34,727 nt of DNA, from IMG/VR virus record IMGVR_UViG_2585427750_000024. One strand, given 5' to 3'. The position numbers were made by a program, and so were the translations under genes. The number at the start of each line of letters is the position of its first letter. Positions within the stretch are counted from its first letter, which is position 1. Of this stretch, positions 1,008-34,727 are shown piece by piece. This stretch comes from a virus. Taxonomy: Duplodnaviria > Heunggongvirae > Uroviricota > Caudoviricetes. Under the pieces are notes generated by a model. That model saw nothing but the letters and a program-made list of their open reading frames with translations, ran no database searches and had not been told where the DNA came from.

Positions 1008-1355
1008 TTACTTATCACATAAATCAAATGCAGCCTTAGTGACATCCCCCAGACTCTTTTTTAACCCTGGGGCGGCATCATTATCTAGCCAAAATGGATT
1101 ATTGTTATCTAACGGTAACGCACCAAATGTTTTACCTTTTATTCGAGCTAAACCTGTAAGCGCATATAACTTATTATCGTCAAAATTCATCACATAAGGA
1201 TTACCATCAAGACACTGTAATTGAACCTCATCAGTATTAAATGGCCATACCCCATTGAAACTCTCACGTTCAATAGTTTTAAAAGGCATTGCGACGGCGG
1301 AAAAAGAAAACATAGATAAAAAAGTAACTAATAGTTGAACCTTTTTTACTTTCAT
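1008..1355 (-). CDS. Small secreted/periplasmic protein of unknown function (cargo gene)
   Basis: 115 aa; N-terminal signal peptide (MKVKKVQLLVTFLSMFSFSAVA), two Cys; tightly packed between int and the upstream ORF; no P2 counterpart at this position. Confidence 0.5.
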   Translation of the reverse strand: MKVKKVQLLVTFLSMFSFSAVAMPFKTIERESFNGVWPFNTDEVQLQCLDGNPYVMNFDDNKLYALTGLARIKGKTFGALPLDNNNPFWLDNDAAPGLKKSLGDVTKAAFDLCDK

Positions 1356-1384
1356 ATCATTACCTCAATTTAGCTCAAGTAAGA

Positions 1385-2035
1385 TTACAAATTAAAAAAC
1401 ACCCTAGAAATGGCACCGCCTACCAAAACCCCTACGCAGATAAAGAATATTATTTCTTTTGGATAAAGTCGGATTAATTCTGAAGCACGAAGTCGAACTT
1501 CTGGTAAGGCCGAACTCTCTGTGTGACTTGATGCCGATTGTTGCTCTAACCACGACAATGCAGACTGTAACTGAGAACGAGTAAGATCGTTTAAACGTCC
1601 TGTACCGAAATTGATATGGCAATACCGCAGAAGTTTTTGTCGAAGTCCACAGTCTTCACTGTTACGTAGTAATAAACTTACAAGAGTCTTACAGGCATCA
1701 TGATCTTTACATCGCTCAAGCATTGCATGCAGAAAACTCTCCGCTGTTTTATATTGATTTACTGTCATATCATCAATACCAGCTACACCAATCTCCGCAT
1801 GTACTTTTTGCCAAATAATAAACGCTTCAGTATTGCTAGCTTCTGCAATAGCAGCAACCAAGCTATTTAGCTCCTTACGCTGAGCCTTAAGCAAAGGGCG
1901 ATCGTCATCATCATTATTCGAAGGGATTGCGATATTGACGGTATGAGAACCATCATATCGCTCTATCTGAATATTCTTTTCGTGAAAATCACGCCCAGCA
2001 ACGCGATTGTTTGAACCGTTTGAGTTGACGGCCAT
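1385..2035 (-). CDS. C-terminally membrane-anchored protein co-transcribed with the repressor; candidate superinfection-exclusion/abortive-infection factor
   Basis: 216 aa; strong SD (GGAGGTGAC) immediately before ATG, 15 nt after the repressor stop; single C-terminal TM helix (IIFFICVGVLVGGAISRVFF); N-terminus shares the motif SNNRVAGRDFHEK with the repressor C-terminus. Confidence 0.55.
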   Translation of the reverse strand: MAVNSNGSNNRVAGRDFHEKNIQIERYDGSHTVNIAIPSNNDDDDRPLLKAQRKELNSLVAAIAEASNTEAFIIWQKVHAEIGVAGIDDMTVNQYKTAESFLHAMLERCKDHDACKTLVSLLLRNSEDCGLRQKLLRYCHINFGTGRLNDLTRSQLQSALSWLEQQSASSHTESSALPEVRLRASELIRLYPKEIIFFICVGVLVGGAISRVFFNL

Positions 2036-2050
2036 GTCACCTCCCTACTA

Positions 2051-2455
2051 TCACCTACCCTTAGTTTCGTTATAGTCACGACCAGCGATACGGTTATTAC
2101 CACCAGAAATATTTAACTCACGTCCTGATGGCTGAGTTTCCTTTTCACTGATCGCACCTTTTAAAGCCCCGATCACCGCGTTTTTCACATCTAACGAAGC
2201 TGCTCGAAAGCGAGTAATCAACTCCTGCTCATCATCGTTATAAGTTTCAGGTGAGTGAATTCCCAACACAACATACTGAACATCAAGGCCAAAACGAGAC
2301 AGCGCTGCCAAATACGCAGCATCAGGAAAGCTATCTCCTTTCTCATATCTAAGCTGAGTTAGCTTTTTGACTCCACCAATGTCGCTCATGGCAACTTGAC
2401 TAAGTCCCAATCTTTCCCTTTCCTCACGCAACCGCTGACCAATATCATTTTTCAT
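2051..2455 (-). CDS. HTH (XRE-family) immunity repressor, P2 C-like
   Basis: 134 aa; N-terminal HTH (LGLSQVAMSDIGGVKKLTQLRYEKG); divergent from cox-like genes, adjacent to int as in P2; C-terminal tail GGNNRIAGRDYNETKGR. Confidence 0.75.
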   Translation of the reverse strand: MKNDIGQRLREERERLGLSQVAMSDIGGVKKLTQLRYEKGDSFPDAAYLAALSRFGLDVQYVVLGIHSPETYNDDEQELITRFRAASLDVKNAVIGALKGAISEKETQPSGRELNISGGNNRIAGRDYNETKGR

Positions 2456-2978: not shown

Positions 2979-3329
2979 ATGAAAAAAAACACTAATAATC
3001 CATACTCCAAATTTCGTAATGGCGTAGAACGCCATGTACACCACGTCGCTACCAGTGCATCACGTAGTAACAGCCGCTATAACCTGAACGAGACGCACGC
3101 AACACCAGATGGGCACGCTGTAAAACAAATCGGCGAACACACCTGGCTGATTGAGAAAGCTGGAATCGTGGTTCACAGATGCCCACACAATCCGTTTACC
3201 GGAAACCGCATTTTTGCATTAAGCAGCGGCGATAATCAGTTCGGGCAGGATTTCACATTGTACGAAGCACTACGCACAGTCGATCGTCTGCTTCGCGGGC
3301 AAAGTTTTATTAAACAGGCTGCTTTATAA
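2979..3329 (+). CDS. Hypothetical early protein
   Basis: 116 aa ORF in early operon, no recognisable family. Confidence 0.5.
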   Translation: MKKNTNNPYSKFRNGVERHVHHVATSASRSNSRYNLNETHATPDGHAVKQIGEHTWLIEKAGIVVHRCPHNPFTGNRIFALSSGDNQFGQDFTLYEALRTVDRLLRGQSFIKQAAL

Positions 3330-7898: not shown

Positions 7899-8858
7899 AT
7901 GAAAATTTGTATCGACGACGGCTCCACCAACATCAAGCTGGCATGGACTGAGAACGGCGAACGCCGCAACGCCATCAGCCCGAACAGCTTCAAGTCGGAA
8001 TGGTCTGCGCCGTTCGGTGGCACGCAGCCCGCGAACTACATGCTTGATGGCGTGCGCTATGGTTTTGATCCGGTCAGCGATCGCTTTGTCCAGACGACCG
8101 ACACGCAATACCAGTACAGCGATGTGAATATAATTGCCATTCATCACGCGCTGGTCAAATCAGGCATCACACCACAGGAAGTGGATGTGGTTGTCACCCT
8201 GCCACTGAGCGAGTATTTCGATACAAACGCACAGCCGGACATGGCCAACATCAACCGCAAAAAAGCGAACGTCATGCGCCCGGTGGAGTACCAGAACGGC
8301 GAAGCATTCACTATCCGTAACGTACGGGTTATGCCTGAATCCATTCCGGCTGGCTTTAAGGCACTGGCTGACATGAGTCCGTTTGAATCCCTGCTGATTG
8401 TGGATTTGGGCGGAACCACTCTGGATGTGGCAAAGGTTCAGGGGCAACTGGCAGGTATCAGCCAGGTGTTTTGCGATCCACACGTGGGCGTTTCTCTGAT
8501 GGCCGATGCCGTACTGTCGGTGATGGCCACTAACGGTATGCGCACCAGTCACCACATCGCCAATACCATTATCGAACATCGCCATGATGAAGCCTGGCTG
8601 CGCCAGCACATCCACAATGACGCGCATTACGCCAGCCTGATGGCGGTTATTCGTGAAAAGGAAGAAACACTGAAACAACGCGTGATCCGCGCGCTGGCGG
8701 GTTTTTCGGGTTACGGGCGGGTGATGGTTGTCGGTGGAGGGGCGGAGATTGTGGCACCCGCTATCCGCGAAGCCTGCGGAGTTAATGCGACTTTCATCGC
8801 GGACGGGGTGCCACAGTTTGCTCTGGTTAATGGGCTGTACGCAATGGACAAGGAGTAA
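7899..8858 (+). CDS. parM: ParM/StbA-like actin-like segregation ATPase (type II partition)
   Basis: 319 aa; MKICIDDGSTNIKLAW, ISPNSFK.EW, VMPESIPAG, IVDLGGTTLD, VMVVGGGAE, ALVNGLY all align with recalled plasmid R1 ParM. Confidence 0.85.
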   Translation: MKICIDDGSTNIKLAWTENGERRNAISPNSFKSEWSAPFGGTQPANYMLDGVRYGFDPVSDRFVQTTDTQYQYSDVNIIAIHHALVKSGITPQEVDVVVTLPLSEYFDTNAQPDMANINRKKANVMRPVEYQNGEAFTIRNVRVMPESIPAGFKALADMSPFESLLIVDLGGTTLDVAKVQGQLAGISQVFCDPHVGVSLMADAVLSVMATNGMRTSHHIANTIIEHRHDEAWLRQHIHNDAHYASLMAVIREKEETLKQRVIRALAGFSGYGRVMVVGGGAEIVAPAIREACGVNATFIADGVPQFALVNGLYAMDKE

Positions 8859-8862
8859 ACCA

Positions 8863-9174
8863 ATGACGACTCCAACCAGACGGATAAGTTTCTATCTGAA
8901 GCCCACCGCCGTCAAGAACGAAGGAGAAGCATGCGCCTGGCTGGACAGCCTTACACCAGAAGCCCGCAAAAGCGGCCAACGCGTGGCTTTTCTGGCCGGG
9001 CTGGCACTTCTGAAAATGAATCCGGCAGAGGCTTATCGACTGGCTGCATGGGCTGGTGATGAAGCGTTATCAGTGACACAAACCAGGACAGAACGCCCCG
9101 CATCACAGCCAGTATCAACCGCACAGATAACCAGTCAGATGGCCGGAAATATCCGGGCGTTATTTCCTGAATAA
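8863..9174 (+). CDS. parR: ParR/StbB-like centromere-binding adaptor
   Basis: ATG at 8863, in frame with track ORF 8728..9174, 4 nt after the parM stop; RISFYLKP...LDSLTPEARKSGQRVAFLAGLAL and C-terminal IRALFPE resemble recalled R1 ParR. Confidence 0.7.
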   Translation: MTTPTRRISFYLKPTAVKNEGEACAWLDSLTPEARKSGQRVAFLAGLALLKMNPAEAYRLAAWAGDEALSVTQTRTERPASQPVSTAQITSQMAGNIRALFPE

Positions 9175-13115: not shown

Positions 13116-13236
13116 TGCTCCCCCTGAGTAATTACAGGAAGATTACCCGCGCGCGAAACTGTTCTCCTTAACCCCCTGTTCTGGCCGTTTTCTTACAACA
13201 AAATCCCTTTGTATCAGCCTGTTACGCTTTGCCATC
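13116..13236. promoter_or_regulatory. Divergent late-promoter region between P and O
   Basis: Intergenic between divergently transcribed late operons; contains TAACCCCCT (13169-13177) and ACAACAAAA (13195-13203), both also present upstream of D; no TGT-N12-ACA found by eye. Confidence 0.4.
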
Positions 13237-17943: not shown

Positions 17944-18085
17944 CCAACCCACATGGGGAAACCTCGGAATATGGGGCGACCGCCTTCTGGATGCACTGGA
18001 AACCTGTAACGCGGATAAACGGGCCATTGCTGAACTGGATAAGAGAATAGCCGAACTGACACACCAGACGGGAGTAACACAATGA
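17804..18085 (+). CDS. o-spanin lipoprotein (Rz1/LysC-like), embedded/overlapping the i-spanin
   Basis: Lipobox LVLLTGCAG, Pro-rich mature region; track start GTG 17774, ATG 17804 more likely. Confidence 0.55.
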   Translation: MNAPTLCLTLVLLTGCAGTQNAPRPAPSVRLIPQTLTMPVTPPPFPDQPTWGNLGIWGDRLLDALETCNADKRAIAELDKRIAELTHQTGVTQ

Positions 18086-19959
18086 CCAGTAAGAACTTTG
18101 CACTGATTACAGCCATGACACAGGCTGAACTGACTCAAAAGGTGAATGAACATCTTGCGAAAGGGTGGCATCTTCAGGGGGAGACGCGGGTTGCCTACGA
18201 ACCCGGCACCCCGTGGTATCTAATGCAGGCAATGGTGGCCGATGGCACTACAGACATCTCACCTGATTCCCCCCAGCACGGCAGCGTGCCGGAGTGGTAT
18301 TACGTGGTGGTACTTGCTGGTCAATCCAATGCCATGTCATATGGTGAGGGAATGCCGCTGCCGGATTCTTACGATGCGCCCCACCCACGCATTAAGCAAC
18401 TGGCCCGTCGCAACACAGTGACTCCCGGTGGTAAAGCATGCGCATTTAACGACATCATTCCGGCAGATCACTGCCTGCATGATGTTCAGGATATGAGCGC
18501 ACTGAATCACCCGAATGCAGACCTGAGCAAAGGGCAGTATGGCTGTGTCGGACAGGGCTTGCATATTGCCAAACGCCTGTTGCCTTACATTCCACAGAAT
18601 GCCGGGATTTTACTGGTTCCATGCTGTCGTGGTGGTTCGGCATTCACCCAGGGCGCGGAGGGGACATTCAGCGAGTCCACAGGAGCCAGTCAGGATTCGG
18701 CTCGCTGGGGGGTGGGTAAACCTTTATATCAGGACCTGATTTTGCGCACGAAGGCCGCATTGCAGAAAAACCCAAAAAACATGCTGCTGGCCGTATGCTG
18801 GATGCAGGGCGAATTTGACATGAGCGCCGCTACGTACTCACAGCAACCTCCGCTGTTTGCGGCCATGCTGAAACAGTTTCGTGCGGACATTACCGAGTTT
18901 AACACGCAGTGTCATGGAGGCAGAGCGGCAAGTGTGCCATGGATTTGTGGTGACACGACGTATTACTGGAAAAACACCTACGGCACGCAGTACGACACCA
19001 TTTACGGGGCGTACAAAAACAGGGAGAGCGACAACGTTTTCTTTGTGCCATTCCTGACCGATGGTAGTGGCAACAATACCTCCACCAACGCACCAACGGA
19101 AGATCCGGATGCTGCAAGTGAGGGATATTACGGTTCGGCATCCCGAACGAACAAAAACTGGGTATCATCAAATCGCCAGACGCATTTCAGTTCATGGGCG
19201 CGCAGGAGCATTATTCCGGATCGTATGGCAACCGCTATTCTGAACGTAGCCGGTCGCACCTTAGCCTTCATCAGTGGTAAGGCACCGGAAATCAAACCCT
19301 CGCCCGGCGGCAACACGCCATCGGGTCCGTCTGCAGATACGTCCGTTCGCACAATCTCCCTGCTGCCGGCAGCCGGAGAGGCTGCTGCGCAGGGCTGGAG
19401 CATTAAGGATGGCGGAATTCAGTTGTCAGATGGTGTATTTAAGATCACCAAGCAGAGCAATAAAACCTGGTCCCTGACGCATCCGGTGGATGACGCAATT
19501 ACCCTGCTGACACAGGGCGGCAGACTGACCTGTAAGTTCCGCCTGTCAGGCGCACTGACCAACAATCAGTTCGGGCTGGGGATTTATCTGTATACGGATG
19601 CTCCCGTTCCTGATGGTGTGGCGATGACGGGTACCGGTAATCCGTTCCTGATGTCGTACTTCACTCAGACCACTGACGGCAGAGTGAATCTGATGCATCA
19701 CAGGAAAGCCGGAAACACGAAGCTGGGGGAGTTCGGCGATTACGGTAACGACTGGCAGACGCTGGAGCTGGTGTTCACCGCCAGCAGTGCCACGGTTACT
19801 CCGAAACTGAATGGAGTGGCTGGCCCGGCATTCCAGGTCATAAAAGACAGTCTGACACTGGGGCTGAATGCACTGACGCTGACGGATATTACCAAAAATG
19901 CAACGTATGGCGTTGAGATAGAAAGTCTGGTGCTGGAAATAAATAGTCCTGCAGCGTAA
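18082..19959 (+). CDS. Prophage NanS-p-like sialate O-acetylesterase (DUF1737 N-domain + SASA/SGNH esterase domain)
   Basis: 625 aa; N-terminal MTSKNFALITAMTQAELTQKVNEHLAKGWHLQGE (DUF1737-like) then VVVLAGQSNAMSYGEG (GQSN motif); start overlaps o-spanin stop; no counterpart in P2. Confidence 0.65.
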   Translation: MTSKNFALITAMTQAELTQKVNEHLAKGWHLQGETRVAYEPGTPWYLMQAMVADGTTDISPDSPQHGSVPEWYYVVVLAGQSNAMSYGEGMPLPDSYDAPHPRIKQLARRNTVTPGGKACAFNDIIPADHCLHDVQDMSALNHPNADLSKGQYGCVGQGLHIAKRLLPYIPQNAGILLVPCCRGGSAFTQGAEGTFSESTGASQDSARWGVGKPLYQDLILRTKAALQKNPKNMLLAVCWMQGEFDMSAATYSQQPPLFAAMLKQFRADITEFNTQCHGGRAASVPWICGDTTYYWKNTYGTQYDTIYGAYKNRESDNVFFVPFLTDGSGNNTSTNAPTEDPDAASEGYYGSASRTNKNWVSSNRQTHFSSWARRSIIPDRMATAILNVAGRTLAFISGKAPEIKPSPGGNTPSGPSADTSVRTISLLPAAGEAAAQGWSIKDGGIQLSDGVFKITKQSNKTWSLTHPVDDAITLLTQGGRLTCKFRLSGALTNNQFGLGIYLYTDAPVPDGVAMTGTGNPFLMSYFTQTTDGRVNLMHHRKAGNTKLGEFGDYGNDWQTLELVFTASSATVTPKLNGVAGPAFQVIKDSLTLGLNALTLTDITKNATYGVEIESLVLEINSPAA

Positions 19960-19982: not shown

Positions 19983-20450
19983 ATGCTTAAGACAAACAGC
20001 CTCCGGAAGGGCATGATTCATGGGTGTCGCTGGTGTCAGGCCAACCCGGAAAAATTCACCATTTTCGTGGAGAGCGGCAACATTGAAACGACCGGAGAAA
20101 CGCCCTCGTTTGTTTACCGCTATCAGATGGTGATGTTTGTCATGGATTACGCCGGGGAGCTGGACGACCTCACGCTGCCGCTACTGGCGTGGTTATCCGA
20201 AAATCAGCCGCAATTGTTGCTTAATCCGGAGCGTAATCAGGACATCAAATTCTCCGCCGTTATCAATGACGATGACAGCGCCGATCTCCTGTTTACGCTC
20301 CCTCTGCGGGAACGCGTTCGCATCACGCGCAGCAGTCAGGGGGCACCGCAGGCAGAACACCTGCAGGAGCCAAAACCCCGTCTGCCATCTTCCGAAGGCG
20401 ACTGGTCGCATGTATTCCAGGATGTGACGTGGGGTGAAAGCGATGGATAA
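19983..20450 (+). CDS. R: Tail completion protein, P2 gpR-like
   Basis: 155 aa; position before S and V; size as P2 R. Confidence 0.75.
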   Translation: MLKTNSLRKGMIHGCRWCQANPEKFTIFVESGNIETTGETPSFVYRYQMVMFVMDYAGELDDLTLPLLAWLSENQPQLLLNPERNQDIKFSAVINDDDSADLLFTLPLRERVRITRSSQGAPQAEHLQEPKPRLPSSEGDWSHVFQDVTWGESDG

Positions 20451-21078
20451 GGCATTCACCCGCGTGGATGAAACCTTTGAGGCTATCCGCGACAGCCTGA
20501 ATCAGCAGGCCATCAATAACATCGCCAGAAAGCTGGCACAGGATTTACGCCGCGCCCAGCAGGCGCGTATCCGGTCACAGAAAGCGCCGGACGGGACCGC
20601 GTGGACACCACGCAGACGCCGCGCAACCCGGATACAGGAGCGCATTCGCTTTATCTGGAATAACGAAGCACGCACGCTGAAAAACTGGCATCACGACACG
20701 GGGAAATACGGGCGAACCATTACCGGGTGGGATGAGGATAAAAACAATATCCGCACGTTTTACCGGGATGACATCGACCGCTTTCTGGAAATACGCACCC
20801 GGCGCATCAACCAGGACAGCACAAAGCGCGTCCCCATGTTCGTAAAACTGCGCACCGCCCGCTACCTGAAAGCCCGTGCAGATGCTTCCGGTGTGACGGT
20901 GGGTTACAGCGGCGTGGCCGCACGTATTGCCCGCGTTCATCAGTTCGGTGAGCGCGATCAGGTTGCGCCGGGCATTTTCACCGATTACCCGGTACGTGAG
21001 CTGTTGGGCATCAGTCAGGCAGATGAACGCCTGATTTATAACACGGTGCTGGGCCGGATTGCGGAGGCTGTACGGTGA
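20434..21078 (+). CDS. S: Tail completion / virion morphogenesis protein, P2 gpS-like with internal insertion
   Basis: 214 aa; ARIRSQKAPDGTAWTPRRR, MFVKLRTARYLKA, AARIARVHQFGERD, YPVRELLGISQADERLI match recalled P2 S; ~65 aa extra in the middle. Confidence 0.7.
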   Translation: MKAMDKAFTRVDETFEAIRDSLNQQAINNIARKLAQDLRRAQQARIRSQKAPDGTAWTPRRRRATRIQERIRFIWNNEARTLKNWHHDTGKYGRTITGWDEDKNNIRTFYRDDIDRFLEIRTRRINQDSTKRVPMFVKLRTARYLKARADASGVTVGYSGVAARIARVHQFGERDQVAPGIFTDYPVRELLGISQADERLIYNTVLGRIAEAVR

Positions 21079-21656
21079 GCGCAGAACTCATGCGACTGCT
21101 GAGCAACATCATCCGCACTGGGATCATCTCTGAAGTTGATGAGAAGTCCTGGTGCGTGCGCGTTCGCAGCGGCGAACTGGAAACAGGCTGGTTGCGCTGG
21201 AACACCACGCGCGCGGGAGCCTTCAATGTGTGGCTGCCGCCATCACCCGGCGAACAGGTGGTAATTGCCTGCATTGGCGGCAACCCGGAAACCGCCATGA
21301 TAATTGGCAGCCTGTGGAGTGATGCCAATCCGGCCCCCGGCAAAAGCCTGAAAGAAATCGTGGTCAGCGCGCCGGATGGCGCGGTGTTCCGCTACGACGC
21401 GGACGCAGGCGCACTGAGCGCCAGCGGCATGAAAACGGCCACCCTGCAGGCATCCGTCAGTGTGACACTGGACACGCCCGTCGTGGAATGCACAGACCTT
21501 CTGAGAACGGCGACGCTTGACGTCACAAAAGGGGGAAAGATGAGCGGCAATATCACGCACAGCGGCGGCAATTTCACCTCAAACGGCATCACAGTGCATA
21601 CGCATAAACACGGTGGCGTTAAAGGTGGCAGCGATTCGACAGGAGGCCCGCAGTGA
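21075..21656 (+). CDS. V: Baseplate central spike protein, P2 gpV-like
   Basis: 193 aa (GTG start); LDTPVVECTDLL, TKGGKMSGNITHSGGNFTSNGITVHTHKHGG match recalled P2 V. Confidence 0.85.
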   Translation: MSAELMRLLSNIIRTGIISEVDEKSWCVRVRSGELETGWLRWNTTRAGAFNVWLPPSPGEQVVIACIGGNPETAMIIGSLWSDANPAPGKSLKEIVVSAPDGAVFRYDADAGALSASGMKTATLQASVSVTLDTPVVECTDLLRTATLDVTKGGKMSGNITHSGGNFTSNGITVHTHKHGGVKGGSDSTGGPQ

Positions 21657-26145: not shown

Positions 26146-26175
26146 AAAGCCATCGATTGAAATATAGATGGCTTT
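26146..26175 (-). terminator. Hairpin AAAGCCATC-N12-GATGGCTTT between convergent G and acetyltransferase genes; intrinsic terminator on minus strand
   Basis: 9-bp perfect inverted repeat; on the minus strand the stem is followed by TTTTTCTC. Confidence 0.45.
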
Positions 26176-26182
26176 ATGTACT

Positions 26183-26788
26183 CTATTTATACAATACAAC
26201 ACCGCTCTTTTTAGTTATATATGTGCAGTTCGATGGTATATCTTTATTTATAAAAGACATTGCACCTATTTTTACATTATCCCCAATTTTACGTGATAAT
26301 CCAATGATGCAACAATTAGCTCCGATATCAACGTTACTACCAATTTTTACTCTTGAACCAGGCATGTCACCATCTATCTGTCCAATGGTAGTATTCTGTC
26401 GTAACACCAGATTTTCACCAGCATCAACAGCAAAATGAACAACAATTCCAGCATGATGGGGAATTGTTAACCCTTTTCCAATATTTGCGCCCAATCCAAT
26501 TTCACAACCAAATTTGTTAATTATTTTACTGTTTAACTTTTTGGCTGCTTTCTTATGTAATTTATTACCATTAATATACATTTCGTTAGCCAACCGCCAC
26601 CAGAAAAGGAAATTCCGGTTACGCTGTTTTTTCTCTCTTAAAAGCCTCCAGATATCCATACGTTTCCGCCGAATTACTTCATATTTCCAGAAGTTTTTTA
26701 AATTAGTAGAGTCCCCAAATAAAACAAAGTGAATTGCCATTAAGTAAGACAGCACGATAATCTCCTTAATTATTATTTCAGACCACAC
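26183..26788 (-). CDS. Hexapeptide-repeat acetyltransferase (serine-acetyltransferase/WcaB-like left-handed beta-helix), moron
   Basis: 201 aa (GTG start; ATG alternative at 26740); repeated [LIV]-G-x4 hexapeptides (GCEIGLGANIGKGLTIPHHAGIVV, IGSNVDIGANCCIIG, IGDNVKIGAMSFI); AT-rich island 26140-26911 at the P2 Z/fun position. Confidence 0.7.
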   Translation of the reverse strand: MWSEIIIKEIIVLSYLMAIHFVLFGDSTNLKNFWKYEVIRRKRMDIWRLLREKKQRNRNFLFWWRLANEMYINGNKLHKKAAKKLNSKIINKFGCEIGLGANIGKGLTIPHHAGIVVHFAVDAGENLVLRQNTTIGQIDGDMPGSRVKIGSNVDIGANCCIIGLSRKIGDNVKIGAMSFINKDIPSNCTYITKKSGVVLYK

Positions 26789-26911
26789 ATATTATAAGGT
26801 TAAGAGATTATAAAATCCTGTTGTTTGTTATTCAAAAACAATTTTCTGAGAAGGACATACAACAGCAAGTCGCCAGTCACCTTCATCAGGAAATTGGCGA
26901 CATACGTTAAA

Positions 26912-27406
26912 TCAGAGCAGCCCCTTAACTGAGCTGGTCGCGCTATTAAGGGATGATGTCACCTTATCTTTGAAGCCGGACAACATATCGCTGAACGATG
27001 AGGATTGCAGGCGCTCCCGCAAATCCTCATCACAGCGTTCAAGAGTCAGTGAAAATTCTATCTTTTTCGCCTTACCGTAGCGATCAAACTCGGAGCGGGT
27101 CGTATTCGTTTCGGTCAGGACATACATGCCGTAAATCTGCCCGACGCCATCAATCAGAGGCCAGGGCCGTCCTGTATACGCCTGCGTGGTCAGCAGAGAC
27201 AGCGACACTTCGCCACCTGTAATTTCAGGATAAAGCACACCAGAAAGAACGATGCGATCATCACCTGCACCGATATACTGCCAGCTTGCTGAACGGTTAA
27301 CGCGTTCATTTTTCACATGCCGCCAGCTTTTGTTTTGCTGTAACTGCTGATGCGGCAGCGTGCGCAGCTCAAAAACAAACATGCCATAGATCATCATCAT
27401 GGCCAT
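26912..27406 (-). CDS. U: Tail protein, P2 gpU-like
   Basis: 164 aa; WRHVKNERVNRSASWQYIGAGDDRIVLSGVLYPEITGG resembles recalled P2 U. Confidence 0.8.
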   Translation of the reverse strand: MAMMMIYGMFVFELRTLPHQQLQQNKSWRHVKNERVNRSASWQYIGAGDDRIVLSGVLYPEITGGEVSLSLLTTQAYTGRPWPLIDGVGQIYGMYVLTETNTTRSEFDRYGKAKKIEFSLTLERCDEDLRERLQSSSFSDMLSGFKDKVTSSLNSATSSVKGLL

Positions 27407-27412
27407 GACTCC

Positions 27413-30256
27413 TCAATCTTTATCGTAAAAACTGCCACGCCCGGCACGGGCGCGCCGTTCCATTTCTGCCCTGACCATTTCACCGACCAGTTTCGCCAGT
27501 TCGCGGGGATTCTGCGTAACAACGTTATGCAGATGAACATGAATTTCACCGCCAAATCTGGAGACAGCAGGCTCCCGATTACGGGAAGCTGCAGGAACTG
27601 ATGCCACTGGCGATCGTATGGCCTCCGCCACCGGGCGGGAGCTGGCCGCAACAACAGGGACCAGCGCCGGAGGCAGCGGAGCCGGGACTACGGGTGTGAT
27701 ATTAATTGCGGGGGCAGGCTTACTGACCTGCGCAATCTTCCGCTCCTGCCACTCCCCACGAACAGCAAGTGCGCGGGGCAGGTTCTTAAAGACAATATCG
27801 CCAGGGCCAATGCGTTTTTTCGTCTCATCAACCAGCTTACCTGTGTTATCAGCAATTTTGCTGAGTCTGCGTAGCGTCCCGGTATTGCTGTCTGTGAGCG
27901 GTTTGTTGTCTTTGGGTTTATCACCTCCGGTGCCATTGCCATTTTCCACAGGCTTCGGCGGATTGATTTTCGCCAGGTCCCCCTGAAGTAAGGCAACCTT
28001 ATCCTGAAGAATGGCCGCACGCTGTGCGTCTTCGATTTTCTTGCGCGCCCTTTCCGCTTCATCCGGAAGGACGCCAAGTTTTTCAAGTATCCACGCCAGC
28101 GTATCCAGTAGCATTTTTGCAGGTGTCAGAACAAGTTGTAACGCACCGCCAAGAACGTTACCGAATATCTCGCCAGCACTGGTACATTTATCCAGCGTTT
28201 CCTTGCTGGACTCCATCGGTGACAGCAGCGATTTAAACCAGTTAAACACCTGGCTGATCCCGCTTCCGATTGCGTCAAAAACAGGGCCAAACCGTTCAAA
28301 GGTTTCACGCAACGGGTTCAGCCTTTCCATAATCCCGCTGAACACCCCGGCAAAAAATGCCCTGATGGGATCCCAGTATTTCCAGATAAGGACGGCAGCT
28401 CCGGCAAGCGCAGCCACGATAAGACCAACCGGACTGAACAGCGCCCCGATAGCGCCTCCCAGTAAAGAAACGGAACCCGTCACCATTCCCCATAGTGCTG
28501 GCAGGCCCCTGACAGCATTCATTGATCCGGTCAGGAGAGAAAAACCAAGACGCAGTTTTGCCAGCGGACCAGCAAGCACACCAATAGCCAGCGACAACGA
28601 GCCAACCGTTGCAGTCATTGCCAGCAACGCACCGCCTGCTATCAGTAGCTGGCGCGTCAGTGCCGGATGGGCCTGCGCCAGCGCCGTCACCCTTGATACC
28701 ACCCGCGTGAGCCACTGCGTGACAGAACGCAGCGGACCGTCAATCAGATCTGCAATGCGGATGCGCAACCCTTCCCATGCACTGCCGAGTGATTTCAGAT
28801 CGCCGTCAAGGTTGTTGGCCATAACCTTTGCTGTGCGTTCAGCCTCACCGCGCGCGCCTTCAAGTTCTTTTCTCAGTTTGGGTAAGGAACCGTCACCCAC
28901 TGCATCAACGAGCGCCATAAACGATGTGAAAGCCTCTTCTCCGGCAATGTCCTTAAAGAACGATACCCGGTCAACTTCCCCGTATTTGCGGGTGGCTTTA
29001 TAAAGGTCGGCCAGCACATCCTCCATCGGGCGCATTTTACCCCCGGCATCCGAGACGGACACGCCCAGCTCTTTCAGAGCTTCTGCCGCCGCCTTTGGCG
29101 GTGATGCCAGACGAGCCAGGCTGGCACGCATTGCCGTCCCGGCATCACTCCCTCTGATGCCCATATTCGCCAGCACACCAGCCATCGCTGCGGCCTGCTC
29201 CAGCGATATTCCCAGCTTACCCGCCACCGGACCTGCATATTTCATGGTTTCGCCCAGTGCGCGAAGGTCAGTGTTGGTACGGGTAAACGCTGCGGTGAGT
29301 GTGTCACCGACCCGGTCCATCTGGTCAGCAGAAAGGCCGAACTGCGTCAGGATATTTGAGCCAATATCTGCCGTCTCGCCGAGATCCATACCGCCAGCCG
29401 TTGCCATGCTCAGCACTCCGGGAAGCGCAGCCTGAATGGCCTGCGGTGTGAAGCCTGCCATTGCAAGAAATGCCTGCCCATTGGCGGCATCGCCTGCGGT
29501 GAACTGCGTTTCAGAGCCAAGTTTTAACGCCTGCTCACGCAGCGCCTTAAACTGCGGGCTGTTCTGGTCGATTCGCGTCAGCGCCTGAACGCGGGACATC
29601 TCTTTGCCGAACCCGATCGCGGGCTGCAAAAAACGCCCGGCAGCATAGCCGCCCGCCGCTGCCGCACCAATTGCCAGCGCACCACCTGTTTTCAGTTTTC
29701 CCGCGGTTTCCTGCGCGCGCGAATACCACTCACGCGCCCGCGTTACACGCGCAAGCGCCTGCCGTTCGCGTTCAAGCTGGTTGTTGTACTGTTCGGTGCG
29801 TCTGATGGCCTGCTGGATGGTGTTATCGCTGCCTGTCAGGGAAATGCCGTGGCGTTTCAGCTCTCCGCCAAGCTCCCGCATTTTCTGAATTTCCCGTGTG
29901 CGCGATTCATTCAGGCGTTCAAGCCGGGTGCTTAACTGCTGCATCAGCTTTTGTTGTTTTTCGCTGAGCACTGTACCCGTGCGTTGTAACTGATTAAGGG
30001 CGTTAAGCTGGCGTCGTGCTTTCACGATACCCGCATCCGCTTTACTGACAGCGTCGCGGGCGCGCTCAAATGAACGAGCCTGACGCTCGAGATTTTTAAT
30101 CGCCCCCTGCGTTCGCTGGATGGAGTCACCAAACTGCCCCATCAGGCGGCGGGCGTTTTCGGCAGGCCGGGTCAGCCTGTCAACGGCGCTGAAAGCGACC
30201 CGGATATCAAGAGTCTTCATTGTCTGCATTCCCGCTGCGAAGTGCCGCCCGCTCAC
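27413..30256 (-). CDS. T: Tail tape measure protein, P2 gpT-like
   Basis: 947 aa; long coiled-coil N-region, Gly/Ala-rich TM-like central segments; immediately downstream of E/E'. Confidence 0.85.
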   Translation of the reverse strand: MSGRHFAAGMQTMKTLDIRVAFSAVDRLTRPAENARRLMGQFGDSIQRTQGAIKNLERQARSFERARDAVSKADAGIVKARRQLNALNQLQRTGTVLSEKQQKLMQQLSTRLERLNESRTREIQKMRELGGELKRHGISLTGSDNTIQQAIRRTEQYNNQLERERQALARVTRAREWYSRAQETAGKLKTGGALAIGAAAAGGYAAGRFLQPAIGFGKEMSRVQALTRIDQNSPQFKALREQALKLGSETQFTAGDAANGQAFLAMAGFTPQAIQAALPGVLSMATAGGMDLGETADIGSNILTQFGLSADQMDRVGDTLTAAFTRTNTDLRALGETMKYAGPVAGKLGISLEQAAAMAGVLANMGIRGSDAGTAMRASLARLASPPKAAAEALKELGVSVSDAGGKMRPMEDVLADLYKATRKYGEVDRVSFFKDIAGEEAFTSFMALVDAVGDGSLPKLRKELEGARGEAERTAKVMANNLDGDLKSLGSAWEGLRIRIADLIDGPLRSVTQWLTRVVSRVTALAQAHPALTRQLLIAGGALLAMTATVGSLSLAIGVLAGPLAKLRLGFSLLTGSMNAVRGLPALWGMVTGSVSLLGGAIGALFSPVGLIVAALAGAAVLIWKYWDPIRAFFAGVFSGIMERLNPLRETFERFGPVFDAIGSGISQVFNWFKSLLSPMESSKETLDKCTSAGEIFGNVLGGALQLVLTPAKMLLDTLAWILEKLGVLPDEAERARKKIEDAQRAAILQDKVALLQGDLAKINPPKPVENGNGTGGDKPKDNKPLTDSNTGTLRRLSKIADNTGKLVDETKKRIGPGDIVFKNLPRALAVRGEWQERKIAQVSKPAPAINITPVVPAPLPPALVPVVAASSRPVAEAIRSPVASVPAASRNREPAVSRFGGEIHVHLHNVVTQNPRELAKLVGEMVRAEMERRARAGRGSFYDKD

Positions 30257-30736
30257 GCCAGCTAACCACTTCGCCGGGCGTCATCATGAAGATTTCGGCG
30301 GGCGACCAGTTAAAAATAACGGCAATATCTGCCACAAAGTCTTCTATGTGCTCAAAGCACACAACCGTGATCAGGCTTCCGTCGCCTGTTCGTTCTTCCC
30401 GCCAGAGTCCGCACCGCTCAAAAAATTTACGGCAACCACACATAACTGAATAAAGTCACGGGATGCCATTTTTTTGATCGTCACTTCATCCAGTCGCGGT
30501 GATGTCACGCGTGACAGCAGCGTAAACATGGATTCCGCTTTCAGATTCAGCACATCAGACAGCGACAAATCTCGCAGAGATCCAGCCTGCTCAATAGCCC
30601 CGGTGATCTCCACATACGTGATTTTTTCGCCGCCTCGCTCAATTGGTTGGGTAAGTTTTACACCACGCTCACTGGTTTCTTTCACAGTGTCAGCAACTAC
30701 CGTGTTTTCGGTATCGATGTTTTTCGTCTCTTTCAT
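30207..30736 (-). CDS. E+E' fusion produced by programmed -1 translational frameshift
   Basis: -1 frame is open from 30455 to stop 30207 and overlaps the E 3' end; heptamer T_TTT_TTG at 30425-30419 is in the correct phase. Confidence 0.6.
30371..30736 (-). CDS. E: Tail assembly chaperone E (P2 gpE-like)
   Basis: 121 aa; between FII and T; contains slippery heptamer T TTT TTG near its 3' end. Confidence 0.75.
   Translation of the reverse strand: MKETKNIDTENTVVADTVKETSERGVKLTQPIERGGEKITYVEITGAIEQAGSLRDLSLSDVLNLKAESMFTLLSRVTSPRLDEVTIKKMASRDFIQLCVVAVNFLSGADSGGKNEQATEA
30419..30425 (-). other. Programmed -1 ribosomal frameshift slippery site T_TTT_TTG
   Basis: Plus strand CAAAAAA (30419-30425); minus-strand codons AAT|TTT|TTG in E frame; same heptamer as reported for P2 E/E' (recalled). 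Confidence 0.6.
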
Positions 30737-30790
30737 CAGGAAACTCCTTTCAGTCAGAGGCGACGCACTGCGCCGCCTGCATATTACTTA

Positions 30791-31303
30791 TCAGCCAAGC
30801 CCGAGCGCGGAACGGATGCGATCGGGCACAATGTCCTTGCCGTCCTTCCGGTAAATGAAGTTCAGCAGGTCAATCTCCCACAACGGGCGATCGTTAACAC
30901 TCAGCTTGTAGTAGGTGTTTTTAATGGCGTAAGTGTGTGATGTGGCTTCGCCCTGTTTGGCTTCCCCCATATCAATTTCCGTCACACGTCCGCGCATTTC
31001 GACTTCATACAGGTCGCTTTCTGCATCGGTGTAATATTCACCCGCAAAACGCAGCAGCGTGCCGTCAATCGTGCCGCCATACTTAAGGAACAGCTCACGA
31101 ACTGCGCCCCCCATGACAAAGCTCGCATCAAGCGCGGAGTCGTCCAGACCGAGATCAATACTTACCGCACCCATCATGCCACCACCCCGGTAGCTGTCGG
31201 TTTTGCGCGTCAGCTTAGGCAGAGTGACGGACGTCACCTTACCCACTTCGTTTTCACCATCCACAAACAGCGTAAAAAAGCGAAGATGTTTTGGTACAGC
31301 CAT
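30791..31303 (-). CDS. FII: Tail tube protein, P2 gpFII-like
   Basis: 170 aa; VTLPKLTRK.DSYRGGGMMGA..IDLGLDD and RFAG.Y match recalled P2 FII. Confidence 0.85.
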   Translation of the reverse strand: MAVPKHLRFFTLFVDGENEVGKVTSVTLPKLTRKTDSYRGGGMMGAVSIDLGLDDSALDASFVMGGAVRELFLKYGGTIDGTLLRFAGEYYTDAESDLYEVEMRGRVTEIDMGEAKQGEATSHTYAIKNTYYKLSVNDRPLWEIDLLNFIYRKDGKDIVPDRIRSALGLG

Positions 31304-32487
31304 CAGGCACCTCCCAGCACCGCAAATGCGGGTTCAAAGTATTCATCAGTAAACGTCTGGTAAAGCTCCATGTCTTCCAGTGGCGGAACGGGCGTATATT
31401 TGTAGCGAATACGCACACGCCCCTGACGTAAATCCGTGGTGCTGTTATCCACCACGTCATACCAGCACTCCGCGCCAATCAGTTTCCCGGCAGTAACCAG
31501 CGAATCCAGTTTTGCCCTGATGGCACTGATAACATCCTTCACGTTCGCAGGCGTCAGTGGACTGTCGATGGTTTCAAACTGCGCTTCCGCAATTGAATCA
31601 GCCAGCACCTGTGCGGTTCGGGTATACACCTCAAAGATGTAGGCGTTCGTTTCCGGTGTGCGGTTGCCCCAGAAGCGGAACCCGTTGCGACGAATAATGG
31701 TCGTGATTTCTTTGTTGTTGAGGCTGTTGGCATCACTGTCTTCGGCCTGCAACGACCAGAAAACATGCCTGGACATCCCCAGCACATTTTTAACAGGAAC
31801 GTTGGACAGCGATTTGTGCCAGCCCTGCTCATGGTCAATGTACGCACGAAGGCCGCACGCATAGGCAGGCGCGGGGAACGTTTCGTTTTTGCCACTTTTC
31901 GGGTTGTAGGCGATGAAGTCCGGCCATAAGAGCATCACCTCACGTTCGTTGAATTTCTGGCGGTAGGTAATTGCCTCAGCCATCGTGTTACAGTCATGAC
32001 ATGAGGCATACACAAACGCGCGCAGTTTACCCGCAATCACGCACAGGGATTTTGTCACCGCCTCCGTGTCCAGCTCCGGCGCGGCCAGAATACGCGGACG
32101 GTATCCGATGCTTTCATCCTGCTCTGCAACAAGCAGCGCATACATCCCCGTATAGCTGCCGTCAGATTCAGAACCACCGATAACCAGTTGATCCTGCGTC
32201 TTACCGCCTTCTTCTTTGTGTTCAGCCACGCGAACGACGATCACTTTTGTGCTCACCTGGTCTGCAATAGCCTTAAGCGCACGATAAAGCGTCCCCGTAG
32301 TCCCGCATTTTCCCAGCACGTCATTGACGCGGGTCAGCAGTGTGGGCTTGTTCAGCGGGAACAGCTCCGCGTCCGCATCATCCGCCGTTGCCACGATACC
32401 GATAACACTGGAATCAACATCATTAATCGCTGTTACCAGGTCGGTACTTTCCGTAACACGGGCACCATGAAAACGAGTTTCACTCAT
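31303..32487 (-). CDS. FI: Contractile tail sheath protein, P2 gpFI-like
   Basis: 394 aa; DADAELFPLNKP, KLRAF, WPDF, EQGWHK.LSNV, IRRNGFRFWGNRT, YTPVPPLE match recalled P2 FI. Confidence 0.9.
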   Translation of the reverse strand: MSETRFHGARVTESTDLVTAINDVDSSVIGIVATADDADAELFPLNKPTLLTRVNDVLGKCGTTGTLYRALKAIADQVSTKVIVVRVAEHKEEGGKTQDQLVIGGSESDGSYTGMYALLVAEQDESIGYRPRILAAPELDTEAVTKSLCVIAGKLRAFVYASCHDCNTMAEAITYRQKFNEREVMLLWPDFIAYNPKSGKNETFPAPAYACGLRAYIDHEQGWHKSLSNVPVKNVLGMSRHVFWSLQAEDSDANSLNNKEITTIIRRNGFRFWGNRTPETNAYIFEVYTRTAQVLADSIAEAQFETIDSPLTPANVKDVISAIRAKLDSLVTAGKLIGAECWYDVVDNSTTDLRQGRVRIRYKYTPVPPLEDMELYQTFTDEYFEPAFAVLGGA

Positions 32488-32644
32488 AGCTTCAGCCCCT
32501 TGTATCCGTTAAATGATTCGGCAACAATCATCACCCACCACGCGCGTAATCTCACCCCTGCGCCGTTCTCCCGCCACGGCGACAACAAAAAGCAGTAACC
32601 CCCTATGCACGCACATGCGACCATGCCGCACAGGGAGGGAACAG
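32488..32644. promoter_or_regulatory. Divergent promoter region between FI (leftward) and D (rightward)
   Basis: 157-bp intergenic; contains ACAACAAAA (32582-32590) and TAACCCCCT (32596-32604), both shared with the P/O region; RBS GGGAGGG before D ATG 32645. Confidence 0.35.
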
Positions 32645-33745
32645 ATGACCGATACCACCATGCAATTGCTCAGTCAGAGCACAGACCCCGTGAAAATGCC
32701 GGATTTTGATATTCTCGCGGAGGGGGAAACACTGTCCGGCGTGGCAGAGCGCCTGATGAGCCTGTCACTGACCGACAACCGGGGATTTGAAGCGGACCTG
32801 CTCACCATCACGCTGGATGATGCGGATGGTCAGTTGCAGCTACCGCCACGGGGCGCGCGCCTGACGGTTCTCATTGGCTGGAAAGGAGAACCGCTGACAG
32901 AAAAAGGCACTTACATTGTTGATGAAATCGCTCACGAAGGACCGCCGGACAGGCTGACTGTTTCAGCCAGAAGCGCAGATTTTCGGGATGAATTTAACGT
33001 TAAACGTGAGGTGTCCTGGCATGATGTGACCGTTGAGCGCGTGGTATCCGCCATCGCTCATCGGTACGGTCTGAAACCACAAATCAGCGAAATGCTGATG
33101 GATATTGAAATCGACCACGCCGACCAGACCGAAGAAAGCGACATGTCCTTCCTTACGCGCATGGCGGAAATGCTGGGCGCAATCACTACGGTAAAAAGCA
33201 GTAATCTGTTATTCATCATGCCAGGCGGTGGCGTGAACGCACAGGGCCAGCCGTTGCCATCGTTCGCCATCACGCGCAGCAGTGGCGATCGCCATCAGTT
33301 CCGCATTGCTGACCGCGAAGCGTATACGGGGGTACGTGCTTACTGGCTTGATCTTAATTACGGGAAAAAGAAAAAAGTCAGCGTGAAACGCCGCAAACCG
33401 AAAAAGGAGAAAAGCAGCAGCCGTGAAGGTGACTATATGGAAGGTGCGGAAGGCAACGTGTTTGTGTTACGCAAGACTTATCAGAACGAGCAGGCAGCAA
33501 GACGTGCAGCGGCGGCAAAGTGGCAGCAGCTACAACGCGGAGCCGCATCATTCTCCATCACGCTGGCGCGTGGACGCGCAGAACTCTATCCCGAAATGCA
33601 TGGCACGGTGACAGGCTTCAAAAGTGACATCGATAATCAGGACTGGATTATTGCAAAAGCCGAGCACACCATTGATAACAGCGGCTTTACCACACAGCTT
33701 GAGCTTGAAGCAAAAATCCCGGAATGGATAGCAGAAACAGAATGA
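32513..33745 (+). CDS. D: Tail protein D (P2 gpD-like); probable true start ATG 32645
   Basis: Track ORF 410 aa; from 32645 (MTDTTMQLL...) 366 aa; SLSLTDNRGFEADLLTITLDDADG...SARSADF resembles recalled P2 D. Confidence 0.85.
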   Translation: MIRQQSSPTTRVISPLRRSPATATTKSSNPLCTHMRPCRTGREQMTDTTMQLLSQSTDPVKMPDFDILAEGETLSGVAERLMSLSLTDNRGFEADLLTITLDDADGQLQLPPRGARLTVLIGWKGEPLTEKGTYIVDEIAHEGPPDRLTVSARSADFRDEFNVKREVSWHDVTVERVVSAIAHRYGLKPQISEMLMDIEIDHADQTEESDMSFLTRMAEMLGAITTVKSSNLLFIMPGGGVNAQGQPLPSFAITRSSGDRHQFRIADREAYTGVRAYWLDLNYGKKKKVSVKRRKPKKEKSSSREGDYMEGAEGNVFVLRKTYQNEQAARRAAAAKWQQLQRGAASFSITLARGRAELYPEMHGTVTGFKSDIDNQDWIIAKAEHTIDNSGFTTQLELEAKIPEWIAETE

Positions 33746-34144
33746 GCAAATTAGATGTATTGACTCAAACCAGAACTGACACACTCACAGCACAGTGCCA
33801 GACCCAATCTGGCAGCCCGCTTTGTGCCTAGAGCAGGTGTTGCTTATGTAACAGTTAATCCACGGATAGTGGTCATGAATGCTGGTTGAAGTTGTATTGC
33901 CATGAGTGGTCAATTAGGGACTCACTTATTATCGCGTGCTCACCATTGATGGGTAAGATCATGCATTTCGGCTACTGTACTTCGCGAATCCTCCGCACAC
34001 AGGCAACACCTGATTTAAGAACAGAGGGAGATGATGACGCAAGGAAGATTTATTATCGTGCATGTGGCAGATGATCTTTTAGCTGCCGGAGTGATAAATT
34101 ACACCTATTTTCGATAAGTGTTTTTGTTATAGAACATTAATTTC

Positions 34145-34419
34145 GTGGGAAACAATAAAGTGAAATTAGGAAGAAATGATAAGTGCTGGTGTAATTCAGG
34201 ACTTAAGTATAAAAAGTGCCATCTTGGTCGAGATCGTGAAACTCCGGTATCCAAAGCCGAGGCACTGAAATTTTCAAAGTCTCTCTCGCAGAGAAAGGCA
34301 TGTTATGCGCCAGCATCCATGCACGAAGATTGTGATAAACGCATCGTTCAGGCGCATACGATATCTAAGAGCAGTAGCCTTAAGGCGATCGCCGACTCCA
34401 GCAATCACGTCATGGGGGT
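34145..34419 (+). pseudogene. SEC-C-motif protein gene truncated by IS insertion
   Basis: GTG start; N-terminal KCWCNSGLKYKKCH (SEC-C-like metal-binding motif); reading frame runs into the IS terminus at ~34420, so track ORF 34145..34597 is chimeric. Confidence 0.4.
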
Positions 34420-34727
34420 TGGATTTGCCCCTATATTTCCAGACACCTGTTATCACTTAACCCATTACTGGCCTGCTGCCGCAGATATTCCCGTGGCGAG
34501 CGATAACCCAGTGCACTATGCGGATGCCATTCGTTATAATGCTCGAACGCCTCTGCAAGGTTCTTTGCTGCCGTTAACCCGTCTGGTTTGGGCATGATAC
34601 TGATGTAGTCACGCTTTATCGTTTTCACGAAGCTCTCTGCTATGCCGTTACTCTCCGGACTCCGCACCGCCGTGTTCTTCGGTTCAAGCCCCAACATCCG
34701 GGCAAACTGCCGTGTTTCATTAGCCCG
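34420..34727 (-). mobile_element. IS3-family insertion sequence (IS2-like), partial: terminal inverted repeat and 3' end of transposase orfB; continues beyond window
   Basis: Element terminus begins TGGATTTGCCCC at 34420; minus-strand ORF 34431..34697 encodes ...[24 protein letters not shown]..., typical IS3-family (IS2 InsD-like) C-terminus; truncated by window end. Confidence 0.7.

Follow-up and report, generated by a model that had tools for sequence, protein, structure and literature searches.

Why do the tail genes FI, FII, E/E', T and U run leftward in a P2-type prophage whose gene D runs rightward? The question is raised by a 34,727-nucleotide stretch of DNA from a tailed virus (Caudoviricetes; IMG/VR record IMGVR_UViG_2585427750_000024), the whole of which is hereafter called the window. 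In phage P2 these genes form the F operon, a single rightward unit, as a preliminary description of the window had stated; the P2 record annotates one start for "FI, FII, E, E', T, U, D", all on one strand. The same description, made from the sequence, held that D had been separated from the FI-U operon, that the block was inverted relative to P2 and required its own leftward promoter, and that a lineage-specific rearrangement, an inversion in this host or a misassembly might be responsible. Gene identities and strands, set against the P2 record, bore out the separation and the inversion. Among the three origins, the lineage-specific rearrangement stood, but the host inversion and the misassembly did not, in view of complete genomes, phage records and an invariant orientation. 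The inverted order was found throughout one well-supported clade of P2-like phages and was restricted to it, with the P2 order present in outgroups. Very probably, therefore, the best overall explanation is that the window derives from a P88-like phage whose tail block underwent a single ancient inversion that became fixed, and the block would have retained the promoter pF with an Ogr activator site now shared with D. As the layout is a fact of gene order, a test against chance is not applicable.

Gene identities were assigned by Pfam, and every match for the sheath, tube, tape measure, U and D proteins exceeded the curated cut-off. They agreed with the strands of the open reading frames (ORFs), FI, FII, E/E', T and U being on the minus strand (26912-32487) and D on the plus strand (32645-33745), as previously described. 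The genes of the block, D and the region between them were as follows.

26912-27406, minus strand: gpU, tail protein, last gene of the inverted block (PF06995, 5.5e-39; position and strand as P88 gp44).
27413-30256 (longest ORF), minus strand: gpT, tape measure (PF10145, 2.4e-58).
30207-30443, minus strand: E', an ORF in the -1 frame (GpE domain PF06528, 1.7e-12).
30371-30736, minus strand: gpE tail chaperone (weak PF10109 match; position as P88 gp47).
30791-31303, minus strand: gpFII, tail tube (PF04985, 7.5e-47).
31303-32487, minus strand: gpFI, tail sheath, first gene of the leftward operon (PF04984, PF22671, PF17482).
32488-32644, unstranded: FI/D divergent control region, 157 bp.
32645-33745, plus strand: gpD, baseplate hub ("late control D"), first gene of its own rightward unit (PF05954).

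The likely start codon of gpT, taken from its RefSeq homologue, was the ATG at 30220. The D ORF spans 32513-33745 on the plus strand, and its RefSeq start was the ATG at 32645, with GGGAGGG just before it; a start at this position makes the FI/D spacer exactly 157 bp long, the length that had been reported. A P2-type slippery heptamer, T-TTT-TTG (TTTTTTG), was present in frame within gpE at 30425-30419 on the minus strand, and the E/E' pair is predicted to arise by a -1 frameshift, as annotated in the P2 record. None of the genes is unusual for a P2 tail module, and among the features of the F operon only the co-orientation of FI to D under a single promoter (pF) was missing, since FI-U lay on the minus strand and D on the plus strand. 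The P2 F operon (pF-FI-FII-E/E'-T-U-D-ogr) and the window have their genes and the E/E' frameshift site in common, and in both an activator dyad of one kind lies equally far upstream of FI. In P2, however, all seven products come from a single rightward transcript that continues through ogr, whereas in the window FI-U is inverted and D is separate. The D proteins of the window and of P2 were approximately 50% identical.

The window holds a P2-family prophage with int, an immunity region, early genes, A, parM, Q and P (leftward), O to G (rightward) and then the tail region. It was 99.9% identical to, and collinear over 34,419 bp with, a prophage of Escherichia coli O26:H11 11368 (NC_013361.1) located between yecA and the leuZ-cysT-glyW tRNA cluster. 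Phage P88 (NC_026014.1; Xuanwuvirus, Peduoviridae) aligned at 95.8% identity over 71.5% of the window, and at 97.1% identity over positions 26906-33755. Genera of the International Committee on Taxonomy of Viruses (ICTV) are delimited at about 70% nucleotide similarity across the genome. The product of identity and coverage to P88 was 68.5%, which is at this threshold for a window made of a partial prophage plus IS2. The gene order also matched that of Xuanwuvirus (int-C...A-parM...Q P / O...H G / cargo / U T E FII FI / D, with ogr outside the window), and within the P2 family the prophage can be classed as P88-like (Xuanwuvirus-type). From U to D, P88 and the window had their genes in identical order and on identical strands, but the place beside U that is taken by an acetyltransferase gene in the window is occupied in P88 by an invertase and an alternative tail-fibre segment. 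Further features set the window apart from P88: a 625-residue esterase gene, another immunity region, the IS2 insertion and a YecA-family gene located between D and ogr.

How widespread is the inverted order? The synteny comparison with the nearest P2-like genomes that had been suggested for this locus showed that P88 and its relatives share it. The arrangement of U-T-E-FII-FI on the minus strand and D on the plus strand was annotated in P88, Citrobacter phage phiSM and the O26:H11 11368 prophage, as well as in phiT5282H (Enterobacter, Novemvirus), SEN5 (Salmonella, Senquatrovirus; SEN4 was also counted), 3LV2017 (Klebsiella, Reginaelenavirus) and ST16-OXA48phi5.4 (Klebsiella, Reipivirus), while a fragment of Serratia phage KSP20 covers the FI/D junction. 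The members of Novemvirus, Senquatrovirus, Reginaelenavirus and Reipivirus, together with KSP20, resembled the window in having the leftward U T E FII FI block, rightward D and then ogr, with the spacer dyad in the same place, but had other hosts and D proteins 62-76% identical to that of the window. The inverted arrangement is already known from public annotated records of at least five named genera, and as it is the standard order of a described P2-like subgroup (at least five ICTV genera), the novelty implied by the preliminary description was not borne out. For annotation, it should be read as the normal layout of P88-like and related Peduoviridae and not as a flag for rearrangement or assembly error. 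The phiSM record (OR565851.1) labels the sheath gene as "late control gene D" and D as "ogr"; these labels are off by one gene and were disregarded.

P88, phiSM, SEN4/5, 3LV2017, phiT5282H and ST16-OXA48phi5.4 are independently sequenced plaque-forming or induced phages, and their common order bears directly on the idea that the block was flipped during assembly of the contig. A 5.7-kb block with short flanking spacers could in principle be turned around by an assembler, but no evidence for such an artefact was found. The FI/D junction was contiguous in 1,358 of 5,426 complete E. coli genomes, a quarter of them (651-bp probe, at least 95% identity), and the U/acetyltransferase junction was contiguous in 495. 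With the collinearity to NC_013361.1 and a block devoid of flanking inverted repeats that could mislead an assembler, an artefact is practically inconceivable.

A broader survey covered 160 loci, namely the 80 best-matching loci from species-representative genomes and the 80 best-matching from viral contigs, found by D protein alignment and classed by tblastn with U, T, FII, FI and D. FI and D were divergent (<FI D>) at 141 of these loci, and U was followed by co-oriented D (U>D>) at 19. The identity of D to that of the window separated the two classes with a clean break: all loci at 60% or above were inverted, and all those at 53% or below were of the U>D> type. The inverted-order loci came from approximately 27 Enterobacterales genera, including Salmonella, Klebsiella, Enterobacter, Citrobacter, Serratia, Erwinia, Pantoea, Pectobacterium, Brenneria, Kosakonia, Edwardsiella, Providencia, Morganella, Xenorhabdus, Photorhabdus, Hafnia and Yersinia. 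When a fused U+D protein was used as query against phage records, U-D adjacency (P2 type) was observed in 395 of 517, and the two parts matched in two separate places in about 49. Whether FI or U is the neighbour of D thus provides a simple synteny marker for a large Enterobacterales-infecting clade of P2-like phages and tailocin-like loci.

Xenorhabdus and Photorhabdus (9 loci) and Kosakonia (4 loci), in which the inverted FI/D arrangement also occurred, are genera known for P2-derived R-type tailocins (xenorhabdicin, photorhabdicin and kosakonicin), and the loci concerned may be tailocin clusters or full prophages.

An inversion could also have occurred recently in the host, or the block could be a programmed segment flipped by an invertase of the Gin/Cin/Hin type, as might be suspected from the DNA invertase that adjoins U in P88, phiSM and P884B11. 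The orientation was, however, invariant across all 141-147 loci of the clade, at D identities down to 60%, and the spacer has a conserved architecture of its own. No inverted-repeat pairs with arms near 26.9 and 32.5 kb were found, so that neither border carries such repeats, and in the window the locus next to U holds an acetyltransferase gene and no invertase. The features of site-specific invertible segments such as Mu G, P1 C or Hin were accordingly not observed, the borders having no repeats and the relatives a single orientation. The lack of border inverted repeats, the lack of an invertase in the window and the constant orientation together argue that the block is not switchable. A recent or programmed flip is very improbable, although an illegitimate invertase event may have taken place in the past, at the origin of the clade.

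The number of inversions was addressed with neighbour-joining trees of D, which lies outside the block, and of FI, U and FII, which lie inside it, built on segments extracted by tblastn. In each of the four trees all inverted-order loci were on one side of a single split, with bootstrap values for the split between inverted and P2 order of 100 for D, 100 for FI, 99 for U and 80 for FII (of 100). Pairwise p-distances were dropped as a test of single origin because their ranges overlap, and the trees were used instead. P2-like genomes are mosaic, and the early regions and cargo loci differed among the phages compared; together with the bootstrap of only 80 for FII, this leaves some room for an inverted order that arose repeatedly or spread by recombination of tail modules between unrelated P2-like backbones. 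Such a history is unlikely, given that genes outside and inside the block all yielded the same split and that the spacer is homologous across the clade.

The P2 order was present in the distant relatives phiCTX, Ralstonia phage RsoM1USA and Mannheimia phage phiMhaA1, and also in Burkholderia, Stenotrophomonas and Wolbachia phages. Its occurrence in distant relatives argues that it is ancestral and that one inversion at the base of the clade explains the data. On this single-inversion account, the segment pF-FI-FII-E/E'-T-U would have been inverted once, in the common ancestor of a large Enterobacterales-infecting branch, with one breakpoint between pF and the G-proximal cargo locus and the other between U and D, which would have set the region upstream of FI directly against D. 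The inverted order would then have been inherited unchanged. The late operons of Stenotrophomonas phage Smp131 are also reshuffled and have kept TGT-N12-ACA-type promoters and an Ogr-like activator (PMC3931495). The rearrangement there is a different one, in which members were exchanged between the V and F operons and U and D are still adjacent.

What, then, drives the two halves of the divided operon? The claim that the block requires its own leftward promoter was correct, and a candidate for this promoter was predicted in the FI/D spacer, which contained three features of interest.

32527-32532, minus strand: predicted -10 of the leftward FI promoter, GATGAT (clade consensus GATTAT), a conservation peak.
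32565-32586, unstranded: Ogr/Delta-type activator dyad GTTCT-N12-ACAAC, with the core TCT-N12-ACA (32567-32584) one mismatch from TGT-N12-ACA.
32607-32624, plus strand: conserved D-side block, consensus GCGCGCGCATG..ACCAT, a conservation peak that ends in a -10-like GACCAT (32619-32624).

The spacer was mostly 150-157 bp long across related loci, and 115 distinct spacers displayed three conservation peaks: the FI-side -10-like element, the dyad with an A-rich extension, and the D-side block. The dyad was present in 137 of 141 related spacers, 61 of them with a perfect TGT-N12-ACA, which is the P2 late-promoter consensus (PMC3931495). The dyad aligned with the annotated activator site of P2 pF, whose centre is 58 nt from the start site. 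From the dyad centre to the ATG of FI there were 88.5 nt in the window, 76-88 nt across the clade and 83 nt in P2 pF. The distance to the ATG of D was 69.5 nt in the window and 66-70 nt in 110 of 136 loci. The homologous site in SEN5 and 3LV2017 was a perfect TGT-N12-ACA, the TCT variant was shared by relatives that encode Ogr, and the right arm of the P2 pF site is itself imperfect.

An exact scan of the window for TGT-N12-ACA returned 2 matches against 8.4 expected by chance, none of them upstream of a late operon or in either late spacer. The idea of an Ogr-less phage that came from this exact-motif scan was dropped after relaxed and extended motifs and the relatives had been examined. For the extended motif GTTSTN12ACAAC, approximately 0.13 copies are expected by chance in the window (our estimate). 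On the plus strand, its zero-mismatch copies were confined to the P/O spacer (13178-13199) and the FI/D spacer (32565). In the P/O spacer the motif had the same form as in the FI/D spacer, GTTCT-N12-ACAAC, with the core TCT-N12-ACA at 13180-13197. Outside the dyad, the FI/D and P/O spacers were only marginally similar (z = 2.3), and this similarity was not taken as evidence.

P2 itself offers a precedent for one site serving two divergent late promoters. Its pP/pO region has a single annotated activator site (3057-3087), from whose centre the starts at 3016 and 3127 are 56 and 55 nt away, and in Smp131 a single activator site is likewise reported to serve both pO and pP (PMC3931495). As in P2 pP/pO, with its one palindromic site, the FI/D spacer has one dyad, flanked by conserved -10-like blocks some 45-50 nt to either side; the start sites were mapped experimentally in P2 but are predicted for the FI/D spacer. 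The position of the dyad, the conserved flanking blocks, the parallel with P2 pP/pO and the lack of a sigma-70 promoter led to the proposal that FI-U kept pF and D gained a promoter. After the inversion, the block would have kept its own Ogr-dependent promoter pF, whose palindromic activator site (32565-32586) would have come to face D, and D would have gained a promoter that uses the opposite face of this Ogr site. A leftward start near 32520 would drive FI-U, and a rightward start near 32630 would drive D and, in relatives, the downstream ogr, each about 55 nt from the dyad centre. All tail genes would thereby stay under late control despite the split. A model of this kind would be a modest addition with a direct precedent in P2. 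That the inversion placed the palindromic Ogr site of pF before D, that a second promoter evolved on its other face and that ogr was so kept under late positive feedback has roughly even odds of being right. If so, the locus would represent a datable, clade-conserved birth of a promoter, in which a symmetric activator site was re-used once its operon had been broken. The FI/D spacer would then be a second bidirectional late control region of the pP/pO kind, with no new regulatory input needed.

The fixed inversion could be equally ancient and yet have left D with an independent promoter, either weak and constitutive or answering to another factor, or with a dyad that serves FI only. The poor -10 on the D side and the very short leader would fit such a promoter, as would a dyad nearer to the ATG of D (69.5 nt) than to that of FI (88.5 nt) and a conserved GC-rich block (32607-32618) to which no role is assigned. 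Yet a simple scan of the FI/D spacer found no sigma-70 consensus promoter, the motif searches found no second dyad in it, and the dyad-to-D distance is tightly kept over the loci cited above. In P2 a single site serves two divergent late promoters, at +/-55, and D is a structural baseplate protein needed together with FI-U. An independent D promoter is therefore possible but doubtful.

Several points weigh against the account of an ancient inversion with a shared activator site. The trees were of the neighbour-joining type only, on tblastn-extracted segments, and the 80 loci taken from each collection were the best of about 430 genome matches and at least 585 viral matches. No publication explicitly discussing the inverted gene order was found in the literature that could be searched, and the orientation of the tail block was not mentioned in the papers on P88, SEN4/5, phiSM, Serratia PP4 and kosakonicin. 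The evidence for the shared site consists of position and conservation, and both start sites are predicted. The leader predicted for D is very short, at about 14 nt, the -10 GACCAT is weak, and the dyad core of the window is TCT-N12-ACA instead of the canonical TGT-N12-ACA. A third zero-mismatch copy of the extended motif was present within gene T (28135-28156, minus strand), oriented with the operon, so that the motif alone is no proof of function; this copy may be due to chance or may be an internal late promoter. Finally, ogr lies outside the window and is presumably present, judging from the identical prophage of O26:H11 11368.

S and V are approximately 11 bp apart in the window (20434-21090), and the 140 nt that precede V contained no Ogr-type dyad with one mismatch or fewer. 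The pV promoter known from P2 may be absent or located elsewhere, and O to G may form a single long transcript in the lineage of the window.

At the left border of the block, homology to P88 on the U side begins at 26906, six bases beyond the U stop codon, and is preceded by a variable cargo locus between G and U. The following features were recorded there.

26146-26175, unstranded: hairpin between the convergent G (stop 26139) and acetyltransferase (stop 26183) genes (-14.3/-14.6 kcal/mol, z-scores -4.4/-5.6).
26183-26788, minus strand: hexapeptide-repeat serine O-acetyltransferase-like cargo gene, or moron (weak Hexapep match; RefSeq serine O-acetyltransferase 26183-26755).
26869-26901, minus strand: hairpin just downstream of the U stop codon (-20.8 kcal/mol, z-score -5.1), followed by UUGCUGUUG.

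The hairpin at 26869-26901 is a candidate terminator of the leftward FI-U operon and lies within the cargo module, outside the sequence common to P88. The hairpin at 26146-26175, followed on the minus strand by UUUUUCUCUUU, is likely to be a bidirectional terminator that closes both the rightward H-G and the leftward transcripts. The leftward unit would thus end at the hairpins 26901-26869 and 26175-26146, beside the variable cargo locus. This locus contained the acetyltransferase gene in the window, the invertase and alternative fibre segment in P88 and phiSM, a DUF262 gene in ST16-OXA48phi5.4 and fun(Z) in P2. The acetyltransferase gene had a guanine-cytosine (GC) content of 0.38 and its own sigma-70-like promoter (26835->26807), and could be a surface-modifying gene of lysogenic conversion. 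Similar acetyltransferase genes adjoin tail-fibre assembly genes in the unrelated E. coli phages JL22 and Ro157c2YLVW.

At the right border, two features followed D.

34145-34419, plus strand: 5' part of a YecA-family (SEC-C motif) cargo gene located between D and ogr (PF02810), cut by IS2 at 34420.
34420-34727, unstranded: end of IS2 (97-99% matches to the IS2 transposase InsD in many records).

No Ogr homologue was detected in the window, either by tblastn with Ogr of P2 and of two relatives or by a scan for the Cys motif. The window ends inside IS2, which is why no ogr is visible, and the gene has probably not been lost. In the O26:H11 11368 prophage, identical to the window in the alignment up to 34419, the order was D, YecA-family gene, ogr, hok/gef and attR, with Ogr encoded 1.3 kb downstream of D and displaying the Cys4 pattern (MFRCPLCG...CNNLEC). 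In relatives, ogr followed D on the same strand after approximately 40-50 nt, and P88 had an unannotated ogr directly after D at 34476-34724 on the plus strand (tblastn, E = 6e-19 with phiT5282H Ogr). Transcription of the rightward unit would in this way also leave ogr under late control, which in P2 is achieved by read-through of the F operon. The IS2 junction at 34420 was present in none of the E. coli genomes listed. Should IS2 exert polar effects on ogr further downstream, this prophage copy could be defective in activating its late genes.

Other regions of the window held genes of note. The immunity region (1008-2455, minus strand; GC content low, 0.38-0.44) encoded a DUF2511 protein, a 216-residue membrane protein and a 134-residue helix-turn-helix protein, where P88 has a short C repressor. 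Downstream of gene A, at 7899-9174 on the plus strand, ParM (PF06406/PF21523, 3.7e-82) and a small partition protein were encoded, as in P88; ParM belongs to an actin-like plasmid segregation system, encoded in this case by an integrating P2-like phage.

The same prophage type, with a D protein 98% identical to that of the window, was also found on a 226-kb contig labelled Vagococcus sp. WN89Y (NZ_JBQPOM010000071.1), and its presence in an assembly under a Gram-positive label is most likely due to contamination or mislabelling. In the late operon, between the lysis genes and R, the 625-residue gene (18082-19959, plus strand) encoded a DUF1737 domain, a SASA carbohydrate (sialate O-acetyl) esterase domain and a DUF6645 domain, and had no equivalent in P88. 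Its domain set resembles that of the NanS-p esterases of Shiga toxin (Stx) prophages in enterohaemorrhagic E. coli, the carrier being in this case a P2-like prophage of O26/O103 strains.

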